From Naegleria gruberi (Eukaryota): a stretch of DNA of 64,000 bases. A program made the translations under genes and the position numbers. The stretch is from the NCBI GenBank assembly GCA_000004985.1, contig GG738863.1, one strand, 5' to 3'. Shown here piece after piece: positions 27,580 through 52,783 of the stretch; positions within the stretch are counted from its first letter, which is position 1; every line of letters starts with the position of its first letter. The notes below the pieces were generated by a model. The model was not told the DNA's origin. It was given only the letters and a program-made list of their open reading frames with translations, and ran no database searches.

Positions 27580-28795
27580 ATGTCAAAACGCTTGAAAAAA
27601 ATGCGTCCCTATCTCAAGCATTTGTATTCCTCATCACCCAAGAAATCATCTTCAAATAACAAATCAGAAAAGATTAATACACCTTCGAATAGTTTATCCA
27701 TAGTTTCGTCTAAAAAAACTTCGTCACCCAAGAAGGTTGTTATTATTGCTGAATCAGAAACGGAGAAGGAGGAGCACAAATCAAATATCGATAGGGCAAG
27801 TGATCATAAACTCATCAAACCTTCATCATTTAGAATTAAAAAGGGAATTATTCAAGATTCGAATAGAGATGATTTCCTACGAATTCATTTCGACAAGTTT
27901 CGAGAAGGTAAATTAATTTTAATTCTCAATCATTCATTCATCAAATATTGAAACAGTTCAACCTGAAGGAGAAACAAAATCATCCAATGAAACTTTATCC
28001 GAAACTTCCTTAACCAGAACAAAGAGTTCTCCAAATATGGAGAAATCAAAAACTCAACAAAAAACCGAAACAAAACGAAACCACCATCACAATCAACATC
28101 GAAATTCACTTTCCCACCAAAAAACAATTCGTCCGCTCCAACCACAAGATGAAGATAAATTAGATCTTCCATCATGTATAATGAATTCTCTATATTTGGG
28201 AGATTGTTTCCAAGCAACTAATAAGAAATCAATTGACCATTTGAAAATTACACACATTGTTAATTGTACAAAGAATGTTGAAAACAAATTTGAAAGAAAT
28301 CATGAAATTTCAGATCATTCCAAATTGGAACATGTTCAAAGTATTGATTTGGACGTTTCTGAAATTAATTTAGAAGATGAATGTGTTAAAAATATGGAAA
28401 ATGTTAAATTAAAAGATAATAGACAAGTGAAATATTTGAGAATTCCAATTGAAGATGTACATACTGAGGATATTTATCAATATTTTCAAGAGGCACATAA
28501 TTTTATTGAAGAGGCAATGTTTGAATGTGGAATTGTACTTGTACATTGTGCTGCTGGAGTTTCTAGAAGTTCTACTATTGTAATTTCACATGTTATGAAA
28601 AAGATGGGCCTTTCTTTCATGTTTGCTTTCAATATGGTGAAGAGAAGAAGGAGAATGATCATGCCAAATGAAGGATTTTTCAATCAATTATTGGAATGGG
28701 AAAGAAAACTAAATGGTGGTAAATCAATTTCTCAATTTAAAGATGGATACATGGATTTATTGGAAATTGAACAGCAAATGTATAGTTCCTACTAA
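27580..28795 (+). CDS. Dual-specificity protein phosphatase, two exons (27580-27907, 27957-28795; intron 27908-27956, 49 nt), ~388 aa
   Basis: Catalytic loop VHCAAGVSRSSTIV (HCx5R[ST]). S-rich N-terminal exon. GTAAAT…ACAG intron, and the phases close. Confidence 0.8.
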
Positions 28796-29000
28796 TTTAC
28801 TCTATCCATAGAGTGTCTATCGTTTGATAGAATAATTCCATATCAAGAGATTGTCTACTTTCTAGTCAATCACCAACTATTCCAAATTACCATTTTTGGA
28901 AAATTCTATAATTGTAAATAACAATGAACAATTCATTCACCAAATTGTATTTAACAACTGAAAATTATCTTACATTCACAATCAAAACAAAAATCAAAAC

Positions 29001-29942
29001 ATGAAAACTTTACTTTTCATTGCAATTTGTCTCTTAATTACTTGGTTGACTTTCATCAAGGCCAACAATGTTGTAATCAACAATAACCAAGAAAATGCAG
29101 CACCAACCGAAGCTTTGAAACAAAAGAGAGGTAATCCAATGCCATACTATTCACAACGTCCACACACTGATTGTTATACTTACAAACATGGTAAACCATG
29201 TCCAAAACCATCACCTTCTCCACTTCCATCTTTTGGTATTCCTGGAGGTTCTTCACCAATTGATGTGTACGTTCCAACATCTGCTTCATGTGCAAATGCA
29301 TTCGCATCCATTTCTTCATACACTTTCGAATCTGGTAATCTAGTTCAATATAGACAATGTAGATCTTTAGTTTTATGTTTACAAAGATGGGTTGAACAAT
29401 TGCTTCAACTTATTCTTGCTGGATTGACTCCTGGAGCTACATTTTCCAATACTCTTTCAAGTGTAGTGGTTGAATTGAATACTGCATTTGGTTATGTCAA
29501 TTCAAATCTTGGTGGAATTTTATCCGAATCTGGAACAACAGTTAATCCAGTTACACCACCTAATTCTCCATGTACATTAGAATTTGCACCTGTCTTGGCA
29601 GCTAATGGTCTTGTCTATCCAAATGAATGTTCAGCTCGTGTTGCAGGAGCTCCAAATCCATACGTCAATGTCACCTTAAATGAAGGAGCTACTGCTAGTG
29701 CAGGTGCTTATTCATTGAGCGATGTTACCAATCCTAGAATTGCATTGACAGTCTTATACACTAAATATGTTGTCAAAATTTTAGGTTTCATTCAAACTTA
29801 TTTGAATGAGTGCGTCTTATCAACTGAGAGTAGAGTTTTCACAAGTGGAATTTCCTCATTGAATACTGCAATTGGATTGATTTGGAGTGGAGATTACAAT
29901 GCAGCAAAGAATTTGGTACTCGATTTATCAAGAAATGTTTAA
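29001..29942 (+). CDS. Secreted protein (313 aa) with a signal peptide and a Kazal-like Cys motif
   Basis: MKTLLFIAICLLITWLTFIKA. CTLEFAPVLAANGLVYPNECSARVAG resembles the Kazal C…PVCG.dG.TY.N.C spacing. Confidence 0.4.
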   Translation: MKTLLFIAICLLITWLTFIKANNVVINNNQENAAPTEALKQKRGNPMPYYSQRPHTDCYTYKHGKPCPKPSPSPLPSFGIPGGSSPIDVYVPTSASCANAFASISSYTFESGNLVQYRQCRSLVLCLQRWVEQLLQLILAGLTPGATFSNTLSSVVVELNTAFGYVNSNLGGILSESGTTVNPVTPPNSPCTLEFAPVLAANGLVYPNECSARVAGAPNPYVNVTLNEGATASAGAYSLSDVTNPRIALTVLYTKYVVKILGFIQTYLNECVLSTESRVFTSGISSLNTAIGLIWSGDYNAAKNLVLDLSRNV

Positions 29943-30135
29943 TTTTTCTTTACAATTTTAATGTAAATTTTGATTCCAAAATTGGAAGGTGAGAAAATTT
30001 CGATTTCAACCAACTTGTGAGTTTTCAATAAAAATTTTGCGTGTTTATTGCATTTGGTATCCACTTAAAACCTATTGGACAAGACTATATTTCATCTCTT
30101 GCCAACAAAATGACACCTGTCACTCATCAAAAAAA

Positions 30136-31425
30136 ATGCAATTCATCAAGAGCCTTCAACGAACTAATTCCTTCAAAACAAATAATGCACAAGAATGGTC
30201 CAAGAAGGAGCTTGAGCTCTTCTTTCGATCTATCGGATTAGAATTATTCACTTCTAAAATATTTTCCAAGCAAAATCCTTTATTTTCATCAGTTGAAAAT
30301 GGTGAAATGTTCTTGACAGCTGTCAATAATATATTTAATAATACTGATACAATGTTACAAGAGAAGAGTTCTTGTATTGACTTGTATGATCCATATGCAA
30401 AATTAGATACAAAATCACTTTCTTTTTTAGTGTCAAGTGTCAGCCATTTAATTGATGACTTGGATATTGGATTGTATAAAGTTCATGAATTGGAAGGGTT
30501 AATTGGAGCATTTTTACATATTTCTATTGATAATCAATCATATAGATCATCAAATAATTCTAAAGCAACTAAACCAAGTGCTAAATTCGATTCCATTCCA
30601 ACACATCCATTAATTAAACAAAGATTGAATCAATTAAACTTGTATTTAAAGATTCAAAAGACATATTTCCAAGAATTATCAGAAAAGAATGAAAATCAAG
30701 GAAAAGAAATTGACATTTCTCATTCAGGTGAAGAAGAAAATGATTTTTACAATTTTCAACAAAATTTTGTATTGGACCATTTCATTGCTTTACAATATTT
30801 CAGATTTGATCAGAATTCTGTACAGAAAAATAAGGTAGCCAATCAAATGAGTAGTTCAAGTGAATCAGGATTAGTGGAAGATCAACAATTTTTAACAGAA
30901 GGTGTGAAATTTGGTCATTTACGTAAACTTTCCATTCAATTGAATAATTTGAAAAATAATGTGAATCATTATGATGAAAATTTCACAACTCATGAAAAGA
31001 ATAAGGGTTCCAAATCATTGTTCTTTGCCTCTTCAGGTGATAAGGGATTTTTCGTTTCACAAAGTATTGAAAGTGTTGAAGCAGCATTTATTGGAAATGG
31101 AGTTGATTGTCGATTGCTGACAACTCATCAAGTGATGGAATATTTGAGATATAGAAGAATTATGAAAAAATCATCACTCTTACAAATTATTGATTTGAAT
31201 GAAATTGATGGTCAAGTTTTTGTTACAATGAGAGATCCAATGGAATGGAAAGTTTTACTGTATCCATACAGGAATGAGATACCAGGCGCCAAGAATGGAA
31301 GTGTCTATGAATGTATTTGTACTTTGGCAAATGCATTGGCAAATATTGTAAAGGCAATTTGTAAGAATAATTTCAAATTGGGTGAAAATAAGGAAGCAAG
31401 GGAATTGAAACAACTTGAACTGTAA
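30136..31425 (+). CDS. Hypothetical protein with an N-terminal SAM-like domain (~429 aa from the first ATG)
   Basis: WSKKELELFFRSIGLELFTSKIF…ENGEMFLTA is SAM-like. The track ORF begins earlier at a GTG (29989). Remainder unrecognised. Confidence 0.4.
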   Translation: MQFIKSLQRTNSFKTNNAQEWSKKELELFFRSIGLELFTSKIFSKQNPLFSSVENGEMFLTAVNNIFNNTDTMLQEKSSCIDLYDPYAKLDTKSLSFLVSSVSHLIDDLDIGLYKVHELEGLIGAFLHISIDNQSYRSSNNSKATKPSAKFDSIPTHPLIKQRLNQLNLYLKIQKTYFQELSEKNENQGKEIDISHSGEEENDFYNFQQNFVLDHFIALQYFRFDQNSVQKNKVANQMSSSSESGLVEDQQFLTEGVKFGHLRKLSIQLNNLKNNVNHYDENFTTHEKNKGSKSLFFASSGDKGFFVSQSIESVEAAFIGNGVDCRLLTTHQVMEYLRYRRIMKKSSLLQIIDLNEIDGQVFVTMRDPMEWKVLLYPYRNEIPGAKNGSVYECICTLANALANIVKAICKNNFKLGENKEARELKQLEL

Positions 31426-34123: not shown

Positions 34124-36247
34124 ATGTCACCTAAAAATTTCATCTTGGCATGTTGCCTTCTCTTCATCCTTCTCACGAGCTCAACGCTCCTGATCTCCCC
34201 AACACAAAGCAAGGAATCTCCTTCATCTGATTTCGAACTATTGGTCAAACAATTAGTCATCCAAAAAAAACAACTTGGTGACAAGTGGAATCCTAAAAAA
34301 TTTATTCCAACTCGTGTTCGTAAAATAATGAAAAAGCTTGCAATTTCACTTCCAGAAAAATGTGCCAGAAGAGAAAATCAAGTTTCTGATATTTTGATTG
34401 AACAAATTCGTGATTTATCGAAATGTTTTTCTGAAAAGAAGAAATGTCCAAAATTGAATTATGAATTGACTTGTAAATGTGGACAAGAAAGAATTAGAAA
34501 GACTAAATTGGTAAATGGATTGAATTGTCCTTATTTTGAATGTAGAAAGAAGGATCAACCAACTGTTAAATGTCCATTAATTTTCACACAAGATCAGAAA
34601 TGTAAAGAAGGATATTATCAAGTTGTTAAAAAGGTTAAATTTGGAAAATTGGATTGTGATAGAAAGGTTTGTGTCAAGAAGGTTGAAAAATGTCCAGAAA
34701 TTTCAGTCAATTGTGCTGCTGGAGAAACTAGACAAGCTTCCAGAGATGAGAAAGGATGTCCAGTTGTTACTTGTACTAAATTGACTTGTCCACCTGAATT
34801 TACTGACAAGACTAAGGTTAAATGTAGAGATGGATGGACTTTATCTGAACAACAAGTTAATTATCAATCAATTACTTGTAATATGTTGAAATGTGTCAAG
34901 ACTCCATGTCCAAGAGAATTGAGAGAAACTCGTTCTATTAAATGTAAGGTTGGACAAAGAGTTGTCAGAAAGGTTGTCACTATTAATGGAAGAGAATGTG
35001 GTAAATATGAATGTGAAGACATTGTCTGTCCACAAGAATCCAAACCACAATGTGCAGATGGTCAAGTTGCAAGAGAAATTTCAGTTTGGTATCATGGAAA
35101 GAAGTGTAATGCTTTCAGATGTATGCATGATCAATGTCCAACTGTTGAAACAAAGGAATGTAATCCAGAAACTGAACAAGTTAAAGTTTTAACATTCAAG
35201 ACTGATTCTGGATTGACCTGTTATAGACAAGAATGTGAAAAGAAGAAGAAGACTTGTAAGAATGTCTGTGTTAATTATTCTCAAAGAGCTGGCAAATGTG
35301 TCAGATATGAAATGAAAGGAGAACAACAAAGATGTATCAAATGGTCATGGACTGGTTCAAATAACTGTATTGAAGAAAAGATTGTCAATCAATGTGTTAG
35401 ATATGTTCAAGGTGGTCAAACTTGTACCAATAAGAAGGTTGTTACTTCATGTGCTCGTGAAGGAAGCAGACAAGAATGTACCAAATACGGTGAAAAGGAA
35501 GTTTGTGCTGAGAGAGCTGATAAGGCAGTTTGTGAAAGATACAGCACCAGAGTTGTTGGGTGTAACAAGTACAATGAAGTCACTTCATGTGCTCAATGGA
35601 ATTCCATTCCAAAGACCAAATGTAAAGCTGTCAAGTATTGTGTTAAGGAACTTCCATCCAGAACTGAAAAGTACTGTACTGCCTACAAGAAGCAATGTCA
35701 AAAGGGTAAACGTGAAGTTTGTACCACAACTACTTGTCCTTGCAATAAGAAGCCAGTTACCAAGTGTAGAACTTACTACTTTGATGGATGTTGTGAAAGC
35801 AAGTGTCAATCTTGGGCAACTCGTACTGTTCCAGGAAAGTGTACTGCCTATGGATACAAACAAGAATGCACTCCAAATGGAAGTGAACGTGTCTGTGCCA
35901 AATATAAGAGCACAAAGGAATGTGTCTCTCCACGTACTGAAAAGATTTGTACCAGATGGACCAAGACTAGTTCTGAAGTCTGTTCAAAGAAGGAGAAGAT
36001 TAGTGTTTGTTTATCTTCCAAATATACCAAATATTGTGCTGAAACTACTCAAAAGGAAGTTTGTGAATCATGGGCTGTCACCAATGCCAGATGTGCTGAA
36101 TATAAGCAAAGCAAGGTCTGTATCAGAAAGAGTGAAGGTCAAAAGATTTGTCAACAATACCAAAGCTTTGGTGGTGAACAAGTTTGTGTTGAAAAATCAA
36201 AGGAAGATGTTTGTGCCGAATATAAGCAAATGTGTACCTACGAATAA
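34124..36247 (+). CDS. Secreted Cys- and Lys-rich repeat protein (707 aa), not assignable to a known family
   Basis: Signal peptide MSPKNFILACCLLFILLTSSTLL. More than 90 Cys. N-terminal half has CP…C / TC…C modules. C-terminal half has ~12-15-aa periodic units ending …K(E/Q)VC (CAKYKSTKECVSPRTEKICTRWTKTSSEVCSKKEKISVC…). Single exon. Confidence 0.65.
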   Translation: MSPKNFILACCLLFILLTSSTLLISPTQSKESPSSDFELLVKQLVIQKKQLGDKWNPKKFIPTRVRKIMKKLAISLPEKCARRENQVSDILIEQIRDLSKCFSEKKKCPKLNYELTCKCGQERIRKTKLVNGLNCPYFECRKKDQPTVKCPLIFTQDQKCKEGYYQVVKKVKFGKLDCDRKVCVKKVEKCPEISVNCAAGETRQASRDEKGCPVVTCTKLTCPPEFTDKTKVKCRDGWTLSEQQVNYQSITCNMLKCVKTPCPRELRETRSIKCKVGQRVVRKVVTINGRECGKYECEDIVCPQESKPQCADGQVAREISVWYHGKKCNAFRCMHDQCPTVETKECNPETEQVKVLTFKTDSGLTCYRQECEKKKKTCKNVCVNYSQRAGKCVRYEMKGEQQRCIKWSWTGSNNCIEEKIVNQCVRYVQGGQTCTNKKVVTSCAREGSRQECTKYGEKEVCAERADKAVCERYSTRVVGCNKYNEVTSCAQWNSIPKTKCKAVKYCVKELPSRTEKYCTAYKKQCQKGKREVCTTTTCPCNKKPVTKCRTYYFDGCCESKCQSWATRTVPGKCTAYGYKQECTPNGSERVCAKYKSTKECVSPRTEKICTRWTKTSSEVCSKKEKISVCLSSKYTKYCAETTQKEVCESWAVTNARCAEYKQSKVCIRKSEGQKICQQYQSFGGEQVCVEKSKEDVCAEYKQMCTYE

Positions 36248-36299: not shown

Positions 36300-38084
36300 T
36301 TAATGTCTAATATTACAATGAGTCAATATTTTGAGAAACACTTCTTTTGGTACATTTTCAAAGGTCTGTAAATCCTTTTCCATTACTTTTAGAGCAATTT
36401 CAATATCAGTCAACAGTTCATGTGATAAATGAGATAACCTAGTCCCATCTTTAACATATTGTAAATATTGTAAAACCACTTGCTTATCCCTTTGCAATTC
36501 ATAAGAGGCATGTAAAAAACATTCTGTATGTTTTTGGATAGCTGTCATTACAAAATCTCTATCAGCCTTCAATGCAAAAGATGCACTTTTAAATGCATTT
36601 CCATTTTGCTCAATTGCTTGTAAAACAATTTCCTTATCATTTCTCAATTCCTCTGAGGCAAATTCAAGTGCCAATCCATCTTGGTTAACAGCAACTGTTA
36701 CAATTTCCTCATCATTTCTCAATCGCTCAGAAGCGTGTTTGAGTAGAGTTCCTGCTTGACCAACAGCTAGTAACATTAATTCCTTATCATTTTTCTTGTC
36801 CTTACTCGCTTTTCGAAGAGATCCTGTTTTTAATTTGAAAGCTGTCATTAGCAATTCCCTGTCATCTTGTAAATTGAGAGAAGCATAATCAATAGGTTGC
36901 TTACTCCATCGCACAGATCTCGTGTTAATGGCTTGTAAAACTATTTCACGATCATTTCTGAGTTTGGATGATGCGTATTTAAGCGAAATTCCATTTTGAT
37001 TTATGGCAGATAAAACTATCTCCTTATTGTTTTGCAATTCCTTCGAAGCATATTCAAGAGCTAATCCATTTTGACACACAGCTTGTAAGACAATTTTCTT
37101 ATTCTTTTGGAACTCATATGACAAATATTTGAGAGATAGTCCATATAGCTTACAAGCTTGCATTACAATCTCCATATCATTCAATGACCGAGGAGATAAA
37201 TAGAAAACATATCCCTCCCAATTAAGAGCTTTCAAAATTAATTGCTTATCATTCCTCAATTCTTCAGAAGCATATCTTAATGCACCTTCACTTTGATTAA
37301 CAGCTTTCCAAACAAGTTCCCTGTCATTTTTCAATGAATAATTTAAATATTCTGGTTTGTGTCCTTCCTGTAAAATGGCCATCGAAATAACATTATTAGA
37401 AGCAAATCTAATTGCCTCTCCATTTTGTGAAATAGCTCTCAAAACAATACTCTTATCTCTCCTCAACTCTTCACTTGCAAATTCAAGTGCCAATCCATTT
37501 TGTTCAATTGCAATGTCTACAATTGTCTTTTCATTTTGTAATTCTTTATCCGCAAACGCGAGCGCTAATCCATTTTGAGAAAGAGCTTGCCTTACAACTT
37601 CCATATCTTTTTGTAATTCTTTGGAGGTATGGTTGAGAGCTAGCCCATTTTGCTTACAGGCACATATTGCAATTTCCTTATCATTTTTCAAGTCTTCACT
37701 TGCAAGTTGGAGTAATAATCCATTTCGAATAACAGATTGGTTGACTATTTGTTTATCATTTGTAAAATCTTTGAATCTCTTCAAAACATTTATATCATAA
37801 TCCAAAACCCGCAACACAAACGACTTTACAGACCAAAAATTCAGCTTATCTGCAATATACATTCCATTTGATTTTTGTAAATATTCAACAATATATTTAG
37901 CATCTCTCCAATTTATGAATAATTGATCTTTAAGTAATAAATGGGAAAGGATTGGAAAGAAAATTGTTTTAAATTTTAGAGAAGTGGGAACATCTCGGAT
38001 TTGAGTGGTGAGGAGAAGTGATGAATAATTACAATCTAAAATGATTGTGGTGAGTTGACCTCTCATGTTCTCCAAGTTTTCCAT
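36300..38084 (-). CDS. DUF4116-repeat protein (594 aa)
   Basis: At least 12 tandem ~28-aa units of the form L+NDKEIVLxAVxQNGLALEFASEELRxD. Confidence 0.7.
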   Translation of the reverse strand: MENLENMRGQLTTIILDCNYSSLLLTTQIRDVPTSLKFKTIFFPILSHLLLKDQLFINWRDAKYIVEYLQKSNGMYIADKLNFWSVKSFVLRVLDYDINVLKRFKDFTNDKQIVNQSVIRNGLLLQLASEDLKNDKEIAICACKQNGLALNHTSKELQKDMEVVRQALSQNGLALAFADKELQNEKTIVDIAIEQNGLALEFASEELRRDKSIVLRAISQNGEAIRFASNNVISMAILQEGHKPEYLNYSLKNDRELVWKAVNQSEGALRYASEELRNDKQLILKALNWEGYVFYLSPRSLNDMEIVMQACKLYGLSLKYLSYEFQKNKKIVLQAVCQNGLALEYASKELQNNKEIVLSAINQNGISLKYASSKLRNDREIVLQAINTRSVRWSKQPIDYASLNLQDDRELLMTAFKLKTGSLRKASKDKKNDKELMLLAVGQAGTLLKHASERLRNDEEIVTVAVNQDGLALEFASEELRNDKEIVLQAIEQNGNAFKSASFALKADRDFVMTAIQKHTECFLHASYELQRDKQVVLQYLQYVKDGTRLSHLSHELLTDIEIALKVMEKDLQTFENVPKEVFLKILTHCNIRH

Positions 38085-49929: not shown

Positions 49930-51009
49930 ATGCTGTCAGATTCTAATTCCTTCATGATGGAAGATCAACAAATGCCTCCTTCTTCGTCATCTTCTTCTGC
50001 TTCTTCTTCCCCTGCTCCTTCCTCTCCACTTTCACCTCATCATACAGCAACTTTTGAAACAAACATGCTTGATGAATATGGAAGCAGTATCAATCACCCT
50101 TCTAAGCCACTTAACACAACAAATACAGCAACAACAACACTAAATAATGCATCCAACAATAATATAGAACACATGAGATCAGCTGGCAATGATGATTCTT
50201 TACCACCTATTGCTTCCATACCACCAAACAATTCAACTTCTCGTGTTGTTAATGTTGGGCCAATTATGAATGCAATTCAAGCTTATAGTGGTAATAATGG
50301 TAATAGTACACTTGTTGATAATGTAAATGTCAGAATATCCTCCGCCTCATCTTCATGTTCAACCATTTCAGATCATTCTATGAATAATACAATGATTAAT
50401 GGACAAGCACCAAAACCACTTAATGATTTTGAAAATGTATTTGCTAGTTTCAAGAAGAGAAATAGAGAACAATACGAAAATAATAATCAATCCTCGTCAT
50501 CATCTGATCCAGTTTCATATATTAGAGATTTGGAAGATAAAATTGATTTTATGGCACAATTAGTCACTATTCAATCTGCCAAAATGAGAAAGATGGAAAT
50601 GAGATTGAAAAAATTGGAAAACTTACTTCCTCAATCAGGGGATGAATTTGTAAATTCAGGCAATCTTCATCGTATGCCACATAGTGATGAGTTATCATCA
50701 ATTAGTGATGATATACCAACATTTTCAGCACCAAAGAAGGAAAAGGGTAATAGACAACCTAATGCCTATAATATTTTCATGAAGGGAGAAATTCAACGTA
50801 TTCGAACAACTCACACAGAATTAACACAAAAACAGGCATTTAAACTTGCTGCCAATAATTGGACTTTGAAGAAATCTGAAATCCTTGGAGCTTCAAATGG
50901 TTCACAGAAAAAACCAGACGACAGAACTAGCACAGTAAGCACACCTAGTGATACTACCATGGCAGATTCACTTTCTGAAACACCACTCAATCAACTTGAC
51001 GAAAAGTAA
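49930..51009 (+). CDS. HMG-box-like / YABBY-like DNA-binding domain protein (359 aa) with a coiled-coil and an S/N-rich N-terminus
   Basis: PKKEKGNRQPNAYNIFMKGEIQRIRTTHTELTQKQAFKLAANNW aligns by eye with the YABBY consensus PSAYNRFIKEEIQRIKA.NPDISHREAFS.AAKNW and with HMG boxes. Coiled-coil IRDLEDKIDFMAQLVTIQSAKMRKMEMRLKKLENLL. Confidence 0.55.
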   Translation: MLSDSNSFMMEDQQMPPSSSSSSASSSPAPSSPLSPHHTATFETNMLDEYGSSINHPSKPLNTTNTATTTLNNASNNNIEHMRSAGNDDSLPPIASIPPNNSTSRVVNVGPIMNAIQAYSGNNGNSTLVDNVNVRISSASSSCSTISDHSMNNTMINGQAPKPLNDFENVFASFKKRNREQYENNNQSSSSSDPVSYIRDLEDKIDFMAQLVTIQSAKMRKMEMRLKKLENLLPQSGDEFVNSGNLHRMPHSDELSSISDDIPTFSAPKKEKGNRQPNAYNIFMKGEIQRIRTTHTELTQKQAFKLAANNWTLKKSEILGASNGSQKKPDDRTSTVSTPSDTTMADSLSETPLNQLDEK

Positions 51010-51261
51010 AGATTTAATTTTTCAAATATGATGACCCATTCATCAGATTTACTATTATCAAGAGTTGACCAACCTGGCCATTCAAAATTTCTATTTCTTC
51101 TAGGAAAGGATGTGGATTGCCTCTTGGATTTGATGAGAAAAAGGTCTTTTTAGATTTTTCAAAGAAAAAGAATCTTCACAACTCATGTTTCCTAATACCA
51201 ACAACATTCAATAATTTATTATCATTTTGCAAAACAGAAATATACTTTAACAGATAATAAT

Positions 51262-52783
51262 ATGGCATTCGGATCGTGCGNNNNNNNNNNNNNNNNNNNN
51301 NNNNNNNNNNNNNNNNNNNNNNNNNNNNNNNNNNNNNNNNNNNNNNNNNNNNNNNNNNNNNNNNNNNNNNNNNNNNNNNNNNNNNNNNNNNNNNNNNNNN
51401 NNNNNNNNNNNNNNNNNNNNNNNNNNNNNNNNNNNNNNNNNNNNNNNNNNNNNNNNNNNNNNNNNNNNNNNNNNNNNNNNNNNNNNNNNNNNNNNNNNNN
51501 NNNNNNNNNNNNNNNNNNNNNNNNNNNNNNNNNNNNNNNNNNNNNNNNNNNNNNNNNNNNNNNNNNNNNNNNNNNNNNNNNNNNNNNNNNNNNNNNNNNN
51601 NNNNNNNNNNNNNNNNNNNNNNNNNNNNNNNNNNNNNNNNNNNNNNNNNNNNNNNNNNNNNNNNNNNNNNNNNNNNNNNNNNNNNNNNNNNNNNNNNNNN
51701 NNNNNNNNNNNNNNNNNNNNNNNNNNNNNNNNNNNNNNNNNNNNNNNNNNNNNNNNNNNNNNNNNNNNNNNNNNNNNNNNNNNNNNNNNNNNNNNNNNNN
51801 NNNNNNNNNNNNNNNNNNNNNNNNNNNNNNNNNNNNNNNNNNNNNNNNNNNNNNNNNNNNNNNNNNNNNNNNNNNNNNNNNNNNNNNNNNNNNNNNNNNN
51901 NNNNNNNNNNNNNNNNNNNNNNNNNNNNNNNNNNNNNNNNNNNNNNNNNNNNNNNNNNNNNNNNNNNNNNNNNNNNNNNNNNNNNNNNNNNNNNNNNNNN
52001 NNNNNNNNNNNNNNNNNNNNNNNNNNNNNNNNNNNNNNNNNNNNNNNNNNNNNNNNNNNNNNNNNNNNNNNNNNNNNNNNNNNNNNNNNNNNNNNNNATT
52101 TATTGTGGAATGATTATTTGAATTCTGTTCAACAATTTCAATTGGAACCCAATAATACTCATCATTATCATCCATTGAAAACATTCAAGGCGAGAGTGAA
52201 GAATTTCTCTGGAGTTTTACTTTCCTCTCCAACAATTTCAATGAGTTTCATATATAATCAGGTATTTTGGATTACACCTTATGGAAAGGGTGATTCGTCC
52301 AATAATTTTGAATATTATAGGGAGAGAATTGAGAGAGCTATTTCAAATTTCAATTTGCATGTGTTAAAGTTTTTGGTTGTGCCTGTTTTACGGATATTCC
52401 CTTCACTTCCATTGTATCCACCATTTGGAATACCGTGTGCTCAACCAAAATGCAGAGAACGTTTCCAAAATGATGCTCTACTTTACAAGGGCTACTGGAA
52501 GAGTTCAACATCTATTTCCATTTTGGAAGAGATGAGGAGTGTGAAAATTTTACTGGCCTCCTTTAATCCTGACCAATCTCAATCCACACAGAACGTACCC
52601 ACACTCATTGTATACGGAGAATCTGATAATTTCTTCTCGTGGGACGAAACTAAACATCTCTTCTCCAAACATTTTCAAAATATAACATGGAAATCATATC
52701 CCAATCTTAAACACGACGTTTTCCATGAGGATGTTAAAGAACCAGTGTGCAGAGATTTATACAACCTTGTTGTAAGAAACTGA
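51262..52783 (+). CDS. Alpha/beta-hydrolase (MGLL/lysophospholipase-like) gene interrupted by an 817-N gap; only the C-terminal ~225 aa (52098-52783) and a possible start (51262 MAFGSC) are visible
   Basis: C-terminal PTLIVYGESDNFFSWDETKHLF…NLKHDVFHE (Asp/His region of hydrolase_4). The frame across the gap is unknown. Confidence 0.45.
51281..52097. other. Assembly gap (817 N)
   Basis: Run of n. Confidence 0.99.

Follow-up and report, generated by a model that had tools for sequence, protein, structure and literature searches.

The window considered here is a stretch of 64,000 nucleotides of Naegleria gruberi nuclear DNA (contig GG738863.1 of assembly GCA_000004985.1; G+C content ~32%), and this report concerns one gene within it, NAEGRDRAFT_57793, which encodes a large cysteine- and lysine-rich repeat protein. 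An earlier examination of the DNA letters alone (the sequence-only reading) had described a single-exon product of 707 residues that carries a signal peptide, is secreted and can be assigned to no known family, and on each of these points our analysis agrees, with the signal peptide and secretion retained as predictions. The gene consists of one ATG-initiated open reading frame (ORF) without interruption, and its translation matches the N. gruberi hypothetical protein NAEGRDRAFT_57793 (UniProt D2VCF3) at 100% identity and 100% coverage; since it is identical to the NCBI model, the gene is single-exon as annotated. The protein has a single hydrophobic stretch, located at its N-terminus (residues ~5-25; maximum of 2.61 at residues 6-24 on the Kyte-Doolittle scale over 19 residues, KD19), equivalent stretches are present in its orthologs and paralogs, and no other such segment and no membrane anchor were found. 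Judged from these features, the protein is apparently secreted.

NAEGRDRAFT_57793 is rich in lysine, cysteine and threonine. It contains 72 Cys (10.2%) and 99 Lys (14.0%), as compared to 1.65% Cys and 7.1% Lys in the pooled 19 other long ORFs of the window. Seventy of the cysteines lie past the signal peptide, and the mature protein has a net charge of about +60. The sequence-only reading had counted more than 90 cysteines, which overstates their number, and the two internal repeat regimes that it distinguished are evident when the autocorrelation of Cys positions is compared to 1000 shuffles: residues 108-377 produce maxima at lags 5 and 40 (z of 5.2 and 3.8, respectively), and residues 378-707 at lags 9 and 18 (z of 6.2 and 3.1). 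Autocorrelation and manual slicing of the modules were used because a BLAST self-comparison of the protein reports no internal repeats. In the C-terminal half, the modal Cys-to-Cys gap is 9 residues (16 of 38 gaps) and 29 of the 38 gaps fall between 9 and 12, a period of 9-10 residues instead of the ~12-15 proposed earlier. The K-E/Q-V-C ending that had been ascribed to these units holds roughly, as Val occupies position C-1 in 11 of 39 units and K, E or Q are common at C-2 and C-3; a Tyr or Trp at C+3 (18/39) is as strong a feature, giving V-C-x-x-[YW] as the motif of the unit. By hhalign (probability 0.1%) the two regimes are unrelated, and their derivation from one unit by divergence was therefore rejected.

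As delineated from alignments and from models computed with AlphaFold2 (AF2), the protein is built of four parts, which are a signal peptide, a helical N-domain, seven modules with four cysteines each (4-Cys modules) and a C-domain (Table 1). AF2 predicts helices in the N-domain at residues 36-54, 57-60, 63-71 and 88-102. The seven modules (residues 108-377) are 32-42 residues long and follow the pattern C-P-x4-10-C-x2-G-x10-15-(G)-x2-C-x4-C; each is predicted to form one long β-hairpin (predicted local distance difference test score, pLDDT, 55-73), and module 6 is the nearest of the seven to the consensus of the bacterial modules described below. The C-domain culminates in a terminal block with the pattern C-x7-8-C-x3-S-x-G-x-K-[IV]-C-x-K-[YF]-x3-GG-x3-C-x8-C-x3-K-x2-C, and the C-terminus (...CTYE) is hydrophilic and conserved.

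Table 1. Parts of NAEGRDRAFT_57793, with positions in the window (AF2, AlphaFold2; HMM, hidden Markov model; E, predicted strand).
Feature	Residues	Position	Strand	Details	Basis
Complete single-exon gene		34124..36247	+	707 codons plus stop	ORF listing; identity to NCBI protein; ortholog alignment
Predicted signal peptide	1 to ~28	34124..34207	+		sole hydrophobic window
Helical N-domain	~29-107	34208..34444	+	GDKWNP motif; two conserved Cys (C80, C101)	AF2; homologs
4-Cys hairpin module 1	108-149	34445..34570	+	extra non-conserved Cys, C119	alignment; AF2 E121-130/E133-142; Cys parity
4-Cys hairpin module 2	150-189	34571..34690	+		alignment; AF2 hairpin E164-173/E176-185
4-Cys hairpin module 3	190-221	34691..34786	+	short	alignment; AF2 hairpin E201-207/E213-219
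4-Cys hairpin module 4	222-261	34787..34906	+		alignment including Myxococcota/metagenome modules; AF2
4-Cys hairpin module 5	262-301	34907..35026	+	within the stretch that AF2 predicts best, pLDDT about 70	alignments; AF2
4-Cys hairpin module 6	302-337	35027..35134	+	CPQESKPQC..G..WYHGKKC..FRC	alignments; AF2; HMM
4-Cys hairpin module 7	338-377	35135..35254	+	degenerate; no Gly after Cys2	alignment; AF2
C-domain	378-707	35255..36244	+	39 Cys, one per 9-10 residues	autocorrelation; paralog alignment and HMM; AF2
Most conserved terminal block	657-704	36092..36235	+		kept in all C-domain relatives

NAEGRDRAFT_57793 is a real Naegleria gene that is conserved and under constraint. Its ortholog in N. 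fowleri, FDP41_002578, is 53% identical overall and keeps 69 of the 72 cysteines, as compared to 48% identity at non-Cys sites. Between the two genes, the nonsynonymous divergence (dN) is about 0.41 and the synonymous divergence (dS) about 1.12, which is near saturation, for a dN/dS of about 0.37. The N. fowleri protein is annotated with 704 residues (MNADEEK...), and its model lacks a signal peptide because it was annotated from an internal Met, likely an annotation error; an upstream in-frame start gives a product of 740 residues with a signal-like N-terminus, and this longer ORF with the signal peptide restored (P0002) occupies nucleotides 10001-12223 of contig L001 from Logan assembly SRR29240419. 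Environmental assemblies supply another two orthologs, P0003 and P0004, the latter a fragment. The C-domain contains 39 cysteines, an odd number, in each of the three full-length orthologs, and the mature proteins contain 70 cysteines in N. gruberi and N. fowleri and 69 in the third; the seventieth, the extra Cys of module 1, sits at different positions in the two species.

No known family accounts for any part of the protein. A Pfam-A hmmscan of the whole sequence returned no family at E<=1, and separate scans of the N-domain, the module region, the C-domain and a three-module piece returned none at E<=10, where the HMMER filters drop most matches with E above about 0.1. Among the Pfam Cys-repeat families, neither TIL (PF01826), VWC (PF00093), granulin (PF00396) nor any other gave a profile match, and these are the families with which a confident match would have contradicted the sequence-only reading. 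In the PDB, a phmmer search yielded no match at E<=1, and the best profile matches were to unrelated proteins (E of 0.37 for the module alignment and 0.25 for the C-domain alignment). These results bear on the idea that the modules form a tandem array of protease inhibitors, in which each 4-Cys module would be a small inhibitor locked by disulfides, on the pattern of the Kazal, TIL or antistasin proteins that have several domains. Many tandem arrays of small disulfide-rich modules in other organisms are inhibitors, and the protein presents tandem disulfide-rich modules of ~40 residues in a predicted secreted chain. However, no Pfam match to TIL, Kazal, antistasin, WAP or another inhibitor family was obtained down to E<=10, no PDB profile match of the module alignment fell below E=0.37 (ecotin at E=2 is noise), no conserved position resembling a reactive loop is present beyond the Cys/Pro/Gly framework, and the C-domain would be left unexplained, so that we regard an inhibitor function as very improbable. 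From these searches, the protein and its three domain types lie outside any described family, and the gene is already present in the databases as a hypothetical protein only.

Structure prediction was of limited help in placing the domains. The AF2 model of the full protein (2 sequences) has a pLDDT of 44.6, and only its module region is marginally usable. The C-domain model (6 sequences) reaches a pLDDT of 64.5 with a predicted template-modeling score (pTM) of 0.29, and the five models span 37 to 64.5. It contains strands of 30-41 residues in which a Cys recurs every 9-10 residues, suggesting that disulfides could form rungs across neighboring strands. Foldseek searches of these weak models against the PDB gave no match below E=0.05, and the best matches of the C-domain were to pore-forming toxins, in their long hairpin stems, which are generic. 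As the models are weak, this structural negative is weak evidence, and it is possible that the repeats of NAEGRDRAFT_57793 adopt a new fold.

Relatives of the protein do exist. When 1.84 billion representative proteins were searched exhaustively with an HMMER profile (E<=0.001; the library draws on NCBI and UniRef), only 16 were recovered, all of them heterolobosean, Myxococcota or unassigned short metagenomic sequences and none longer than 713 residues. These proteins fall into classes, each covering a separate region of NAEGRDRAFT_57793. Judged by these matches, the N-domain, the 4-Cys module and the C-domain each occur alone elsewhere, and the protein is a mosaic of three reusable domain families, not an isolated orphan. 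Word-indexed protein searches were of low sensitivity, as they returned 2, 6 and 2 matches and missed known relatives, a scan of metagenome and viral contig collections found none, and no paralogue elsewhere within the window was detected by tblastn. To control for composition, HMMs were built from other proteins only and scored against the query and against 200 shuffles of it in which every Cys was held fixed; the scores, given below, indicate that the homologies of the module and of the C-domain go beyond Cys spacing and composition. A full-length alignment with the Myxococcota proteins was discarded, as MAFFT placed them wrongly onto the C-domain.

The N-domain is found directly behind the signal peptide in three other proteins (P0009, P0010 and FDP41_011818 of N. 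fowleri, P0011; E of 2e-12 to 2e-9), where a long Pro-rich linker comes next and then a VWD-like domain that contains a GDPHY motif. These relatives match the Pfam VWD profile at a sub-threshold level (E=5e-4; 20.9 bits as compared to a cut-off of 22.9). Judged from these predicted parts, the architecture of the N-domain partners is extracellular in type. The partners themselves constitute another uncharacterized Naegleria family that is predicted to be secreted.

The C-domain defines a family within the Heterolobosea that includes N. gruberi NAEGRDRAFT_66117, NAEGRDRAFT_71888 and NAEGRDRAFT_74241, N. fowleri FDP41_004030, N. lovaniensis C9374_009239 and Willaertia magna ABK040_005866. Its members align over the full length of the domain with conserved Cys positions and contain the S-x-G-x-K-[IV]-C-x-K-[YF]-x3-GG core of the terminal block, which is present also in the Willaertia protein and in N. 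gruberi NAEGRDRAFT_76199. The members from N. lovaniensis and N. fowleri match with HMMER E-values of 1e-16 to 4e-13, and an HMM of the paralogs scores 118.3 bits on the query, as compared to a shuffle mean of -29 and a maximum of -0.5. In most members the C-domain stands alone behind a signal peptide, and in those with a signal peptide Lys makes up 18-24% and Tyr 5-12% of the residues. At the C-terminus, several paralogs carry tandem DTYKPPKKV or DSYKP repeats or Lys/His-rich tails; specifically, DTYKPPKKV (x4) or DSYKP-type C-termini are present in NAEGRDRAFT_74241 (P0028), P0023 and FDP41_004030 (P0008). Such Tyr/Lys/Pro tails are characteristic of extracellular proteins with a structural or adhesive role that can be cross-linked. 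The protein might be imagined as an adhesive or surface coat of trophozoites or flagellates, acting in substrate attachment, as a glycocalyx or as a pore-plug, and not as a constituent of the cyst wall. It would share the same secretory, basic and Cys-rich features, the VWD-like domains of the N-domain partners are found in gel-forming and adhesive proteins, and the DTYKPPKK tails of the paralogs resemble adhesive decapeptides. On the other side, NAEGRDRAFT_57793 has no membrane anchor, no C-terminus of the glycosylphosphatidylinositol (GPI) type, its end being the hydrophilic ...CTYE, and no known adhesion domain, and we consider such a role unlikely, though deserving of attention.

The 4-Cys module alone composes a set of small, predicted-secreted proteins (P0006, P0007, P0013, P0016 and P0018), of which P0018 is encoded in Myxococcota metagenome-assembled genomes (MAGs), and P0016 and P0018 lie in compact gene neighborhoods of bacterial type. 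Across species, the module conforms to the unit C-P-x4-10-C-x2-G-x9-10-[YF]-x-G-x2-C-x2-[YWF]-x-C, which recurs every ~37-40 residues and has 13 invariant columns. An HMM of modules from outside Naegleria scores 94.3 bits on the query, as compared to a shuffle mean of 4.1 and a maximum of 22.6. By these scores, the module is a cross-kingdom domain family, shared by Naegleria, Myxococcota and metagenomic sequences, that has no Pfam entry; its occurrence in both amoebae and bacteria may stem from horizontal transfer or from an old common ancestry. Genes for module-only proteins are located at L010 3001-3516 (Myxococcota MAG JAKLKB010000104) and L011 3001-3420 (Myxococcales MAG JACKEL010000004), as well as on L002 and L006-L009, and the bacterial ones adjoin RNase R-like and metallophosphatase genes. 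The supposition that P0016 and P0023 reside on one contig (both 3758 bp) was rejected, as the samples differ.

A further explanation is that NAEGRDRAFT_57793 is a polycationic effector, secreted or phagosomal, that agglutinates, binds or damages bacteria as prey or microbes, with the cationic 4-Cys modules as its active units. Bacteria are the food of Naegleria, and the Myxococcota are a phylum that includes bacterial predators. The net charge and the disulfide-stabilized scaffold would suit such an antimicrobial or prey-binding protein, and the same module, with a homology that exceeds Cys spacing in the shuffle control, builds small, Arg-rich, signal-peptide-bearing proteins in the Myxococcota. 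However, no similarity to known antimicrobial families was found with Pfam or PDB profiles, a chain of 707 residues with a C-domain of 330 residues and single, regularly spaced cysteines looks rather structural, and the tails of the paralogs resemble structural or adhesive proteins. We therefore view an effector function as rather improbable.

The genes that flank NAEGRDRAFT_57793 are ordinary eukaryotic ones, encoding a dual-specificity phosphatase, an alpha/beta hydrolase, a protein with 14 DUF4116 repeats and a DTW-domain protein. The neighborhoods of the N. gruberi and N. fowleri genes are partly collinear: upstream, three genes correspond (L001 1-3722 to window positions 28184-31281; a dual-specificity phosphatase and two unannotated ORFs), whereas the interval immediately upstream of the Cys-rich gene differs, with citrate-synthase fragments in L001 where the window has the alpha/beta hydrolase. 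Directly downstream, a convergent gene (36300-38084, minus strand) encodes the DUF4116 protein (594 residues; Pfam E=6e-151 for the 14 repeats). No link between this neighbor and the Cys-rich gene was found, and a viral origin, an idea prompted by the DUF4116 gene, received no support from an IMG/VR scan. Elsewhere in the window, near-perfect hexamer arrays, (AACCCA)x60 and (ACCCAA)x63, occur at positions 3-360 and 2451-2826, and the first ~4 kb around them has 19-27% G+C, is strongly skewed between the strands and has several frames open. As the arrays are telomere- or subtelomere-like, the start of the window is probably the end of a chromosome or scaffold, and the gene lies ~34 kb from it. 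Low-complexity or repeat DNA probably accounts for an isolated patch of 21.7% G+C at 50001-52000, with long ORFs that overlap on the two strands (51222-52184).

Taken together, the Tyr/Lys/Pro tails of the paralogs, the VWD-like partners of the N-domain and the analogous wall proteins of apicomplexans and Acanthamoeba, which are compared below, point to an extracellular structural or cross-linking role. We therefore tentatively propose, as the explanation to which we lean while granting it somewhat less than even chances, that NAEGRDRAFT_57793 acts outside the cell as a scaffold cross-linked by disulfides, with the cyst wall or another coat as its most likely place; the proposal draws on composition, architecture and analogy, and the sequence-only reading had likewise raised a matrix, cyst-wall or adhesive role. 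Within it, the cyst wall is the most attractive site, and no Naegleria cyst-wall or coat protein is named in the literature searched; placement there specifically is a more doubtful suggestion, which may perhaps hold. The proposal is also favored by the constraint on the gene, by the secretory features, by the total of 70 mature cysteines in both N. gruberi and N. fowleri with regard to their pairing, by the regularity of the Cys spacing and by the hairpins and long strands that AF2 predicts. In the mechanism that we envisage, the signal peptide would direct the protein to the endoplasmic reticulum (ER), where its ~70 cysteines would be oxidized, and the seven 4-Cys modules would fold in a row as β-hairpins pinned by disulfides. 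The C-domain, with its Cys at each 9-10 residues, Val at C-1 and Tyr/Trp at C+3, would fold into long, disulfide-laddered β-ribbons and so produce a rod resistant to protease and chemicals. Because its conserved Cys count is odd (39), at least one thiol would be left for an intermolecular or interdomain bond. The numerous lysines (charge ~+60) could bind acidic glycans or surfaces, and the N-domain, which is common to the VWD-like proteins, may serve sorting or assembly. The ladder derives from the weak AF2 models, and the location in a wall or coat and the cross-linking from analogy; both are put forward in that sense.

Several observations weigh against this scaffold proposal. The structural models are weak and unstable between runs, which leaves the disulfide-ladder picture unproven, and the prediction of the signal peptide is based on hydrophobicity alone. 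NAEGRDRAFT_57793 itself has none of the Tyr/Lys/Pro tails of its paralogs, and a Pfam search revealed no recognizable carbohydrate-binding domain (CBM). Searches of the literature and its supplements by locus tag and accession yielded no expression, proteomic or localization data for the gene or its relatives. Finally, the N. gruberi model NAEGRDRAFT_76199 (P0015) joins the C-domain to SAM and PB1 domains (Pfam E of 4.5e-18 and 7.4e-10), and the Willaertia model ABK040_005866 (P0014) has an RCC1-like N-terminal stretch in place of a signal peptide; if these two models are correct, the C-domain is not exclusively extracellular, although they may be fusions of neighboring genes in the annotation.

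The same two gene models are what would favor an intracellular protein, Cys/Lys-rich and binding polyanions or metal, whose hydrophobic N-terminus would not be cleaved off as a signal peptide; its extreme basicity would suit the binding of nucleic acids. Against this, the full-length orthologs keep a signal-like N-terminus, as does each examined full-length C-domain paralog with a native N-terminus, the N-domain partners are of extracellular type, and the fusions that suggest an intracellular setting may be annotation artefacts. The cysteines, moreover, are single and 9-10 residues apart, and do not form CxxC or CxC metal-site clusters: clusters of the metallothionein or zinc type are absent from the sequence, in which almost all gaps are of at least 5 residues and three are of 1-2, and which contains 2 His in 707 residues and begins with a signal-like N-terminus. 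An intracellular role thus appears most improbable.

A more far-reaching version of the scaffold proposal can be stated, in which the C-domain is a disulfide-ladder β-ribbon fold not seen before that, together with the Lys/Tyr-rich paralogs, makes up the protein scaffold of the cyst wall of Naegleria and the Vahlkampfiidae, including N. fowleri, and in which soil Myxococcota and heterolobosean amoebae exchanged the 4-Cys module by horizontal transfer. That all of these parts would hold jointly is unlikely. With regard to wider significance, conservation of the gene and its paralogs extends to the pathogen N. fowleri, which makes them a candidate set for the resistant wall that enables cysts to survive disinfection, and the family could serve as diagnostic or antigen targets. 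Three uncharacterized domain families are defined here, one of them common to amoebae and Myxococcota, and the architecture is possibly a new, disulfide-laddered one. If NAEGRDRAFT_57793 is merely another lineage-specific secreted Cys-rich protein, its interest would be modest and specialist; such orphans are common in protists.

Among the closest known proteins are the heterolobosean C-domain proteins, which are true homologs of residues 372-707 and are annotated only as hypothetical or predicted proteins. They differ from NAEGRDRAFT_57793 in having neither the N-domain nor the 4-Cys modules, in being richer in Lys and Tyr, and in the Pro-rich leaders and the DTYKPPKK, DSYKP or Lys/His tails found in many of them. 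The Myxococcota and metagenomic module proteins contain 3-9 modules and are Arg-rich rather than Lys-rich, with no N-domain or C-domain. Like TIL, VWC, granulin, EGF, antistasin and Fn1 domains, the 4-Cys modules are small (those domains measure ~35-55 residues), disulfide-rich and arranged in tandem in secreted proteins, whereas they differ from these in Cys number and spacing, having four cysteines spaced C-x6-12-C-x15-20-C-x4-C.

The wall lectins of other amoebae offer a second comparison. Those of Acanthamoeba combine lineage-specific Cys domains with Thr/Lys/Cys-rich regions (PMC6541295), and Leo's 8-Cys domains, the Thr/Lys/Cys-rich N-domain of Jonah(1) and the spacers of Leo-TKH, as well as the 6-Cys Jacob lectins of Entamoeba, share with NAEGRDRAFT_57793 a signal peptide (a predicted one here) and, behind it, lineage-restricted Cys-rich domains; the lectins join these to low-complexity regions rich in Thr/Lys, and NAEGRDRAFT_57793 is likewise rich in K, C and T. 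Profile and Pfam searches revealed no sequence relationship to the Acanthamoeba or Entamoeba lectins, which are proteins of 20-60 kDa with 2-3 domains and demonstrated binding to cellulose or chitin, in contrast to the lack of a detectable CBM in NAEGRDRAFT_57793.

The apicomplexan oocyst wall proteins (OWPs) provide the third. In the COWPs, regularly spaced cysteines are thought to form disulfides that stabilize the resistant oocyst wall (PMC4514997). Like COWP, TgOWP and EnOWP, NAEGRDRAFT_57793 has regular, conserved cysteines over hundreds of residues (z=6.2 at lag 9; 69/72 Cys kept) and is secretory, here by prediction, and like the OWPs it belongs to a small multigene family within one lineage. 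This is a resemblance and not membership, as the COWPs are built of 6-Cys type I and type II units, whereas 4-Cys hairpin modules and single-Cys units of 9-10 residues are found here, and no apicomplexan protein is among the 16 recovered by the profile search, assuming that the COWPs are in the library. In kind, to judge by such analogies, NAEGRDRAFT_57793 resembles known lineage-specific extracellular proteins with regularly spaced cysteines, and it is best read as analogous to, and not homologous with, the apicomplexan oocyst wall proteins.

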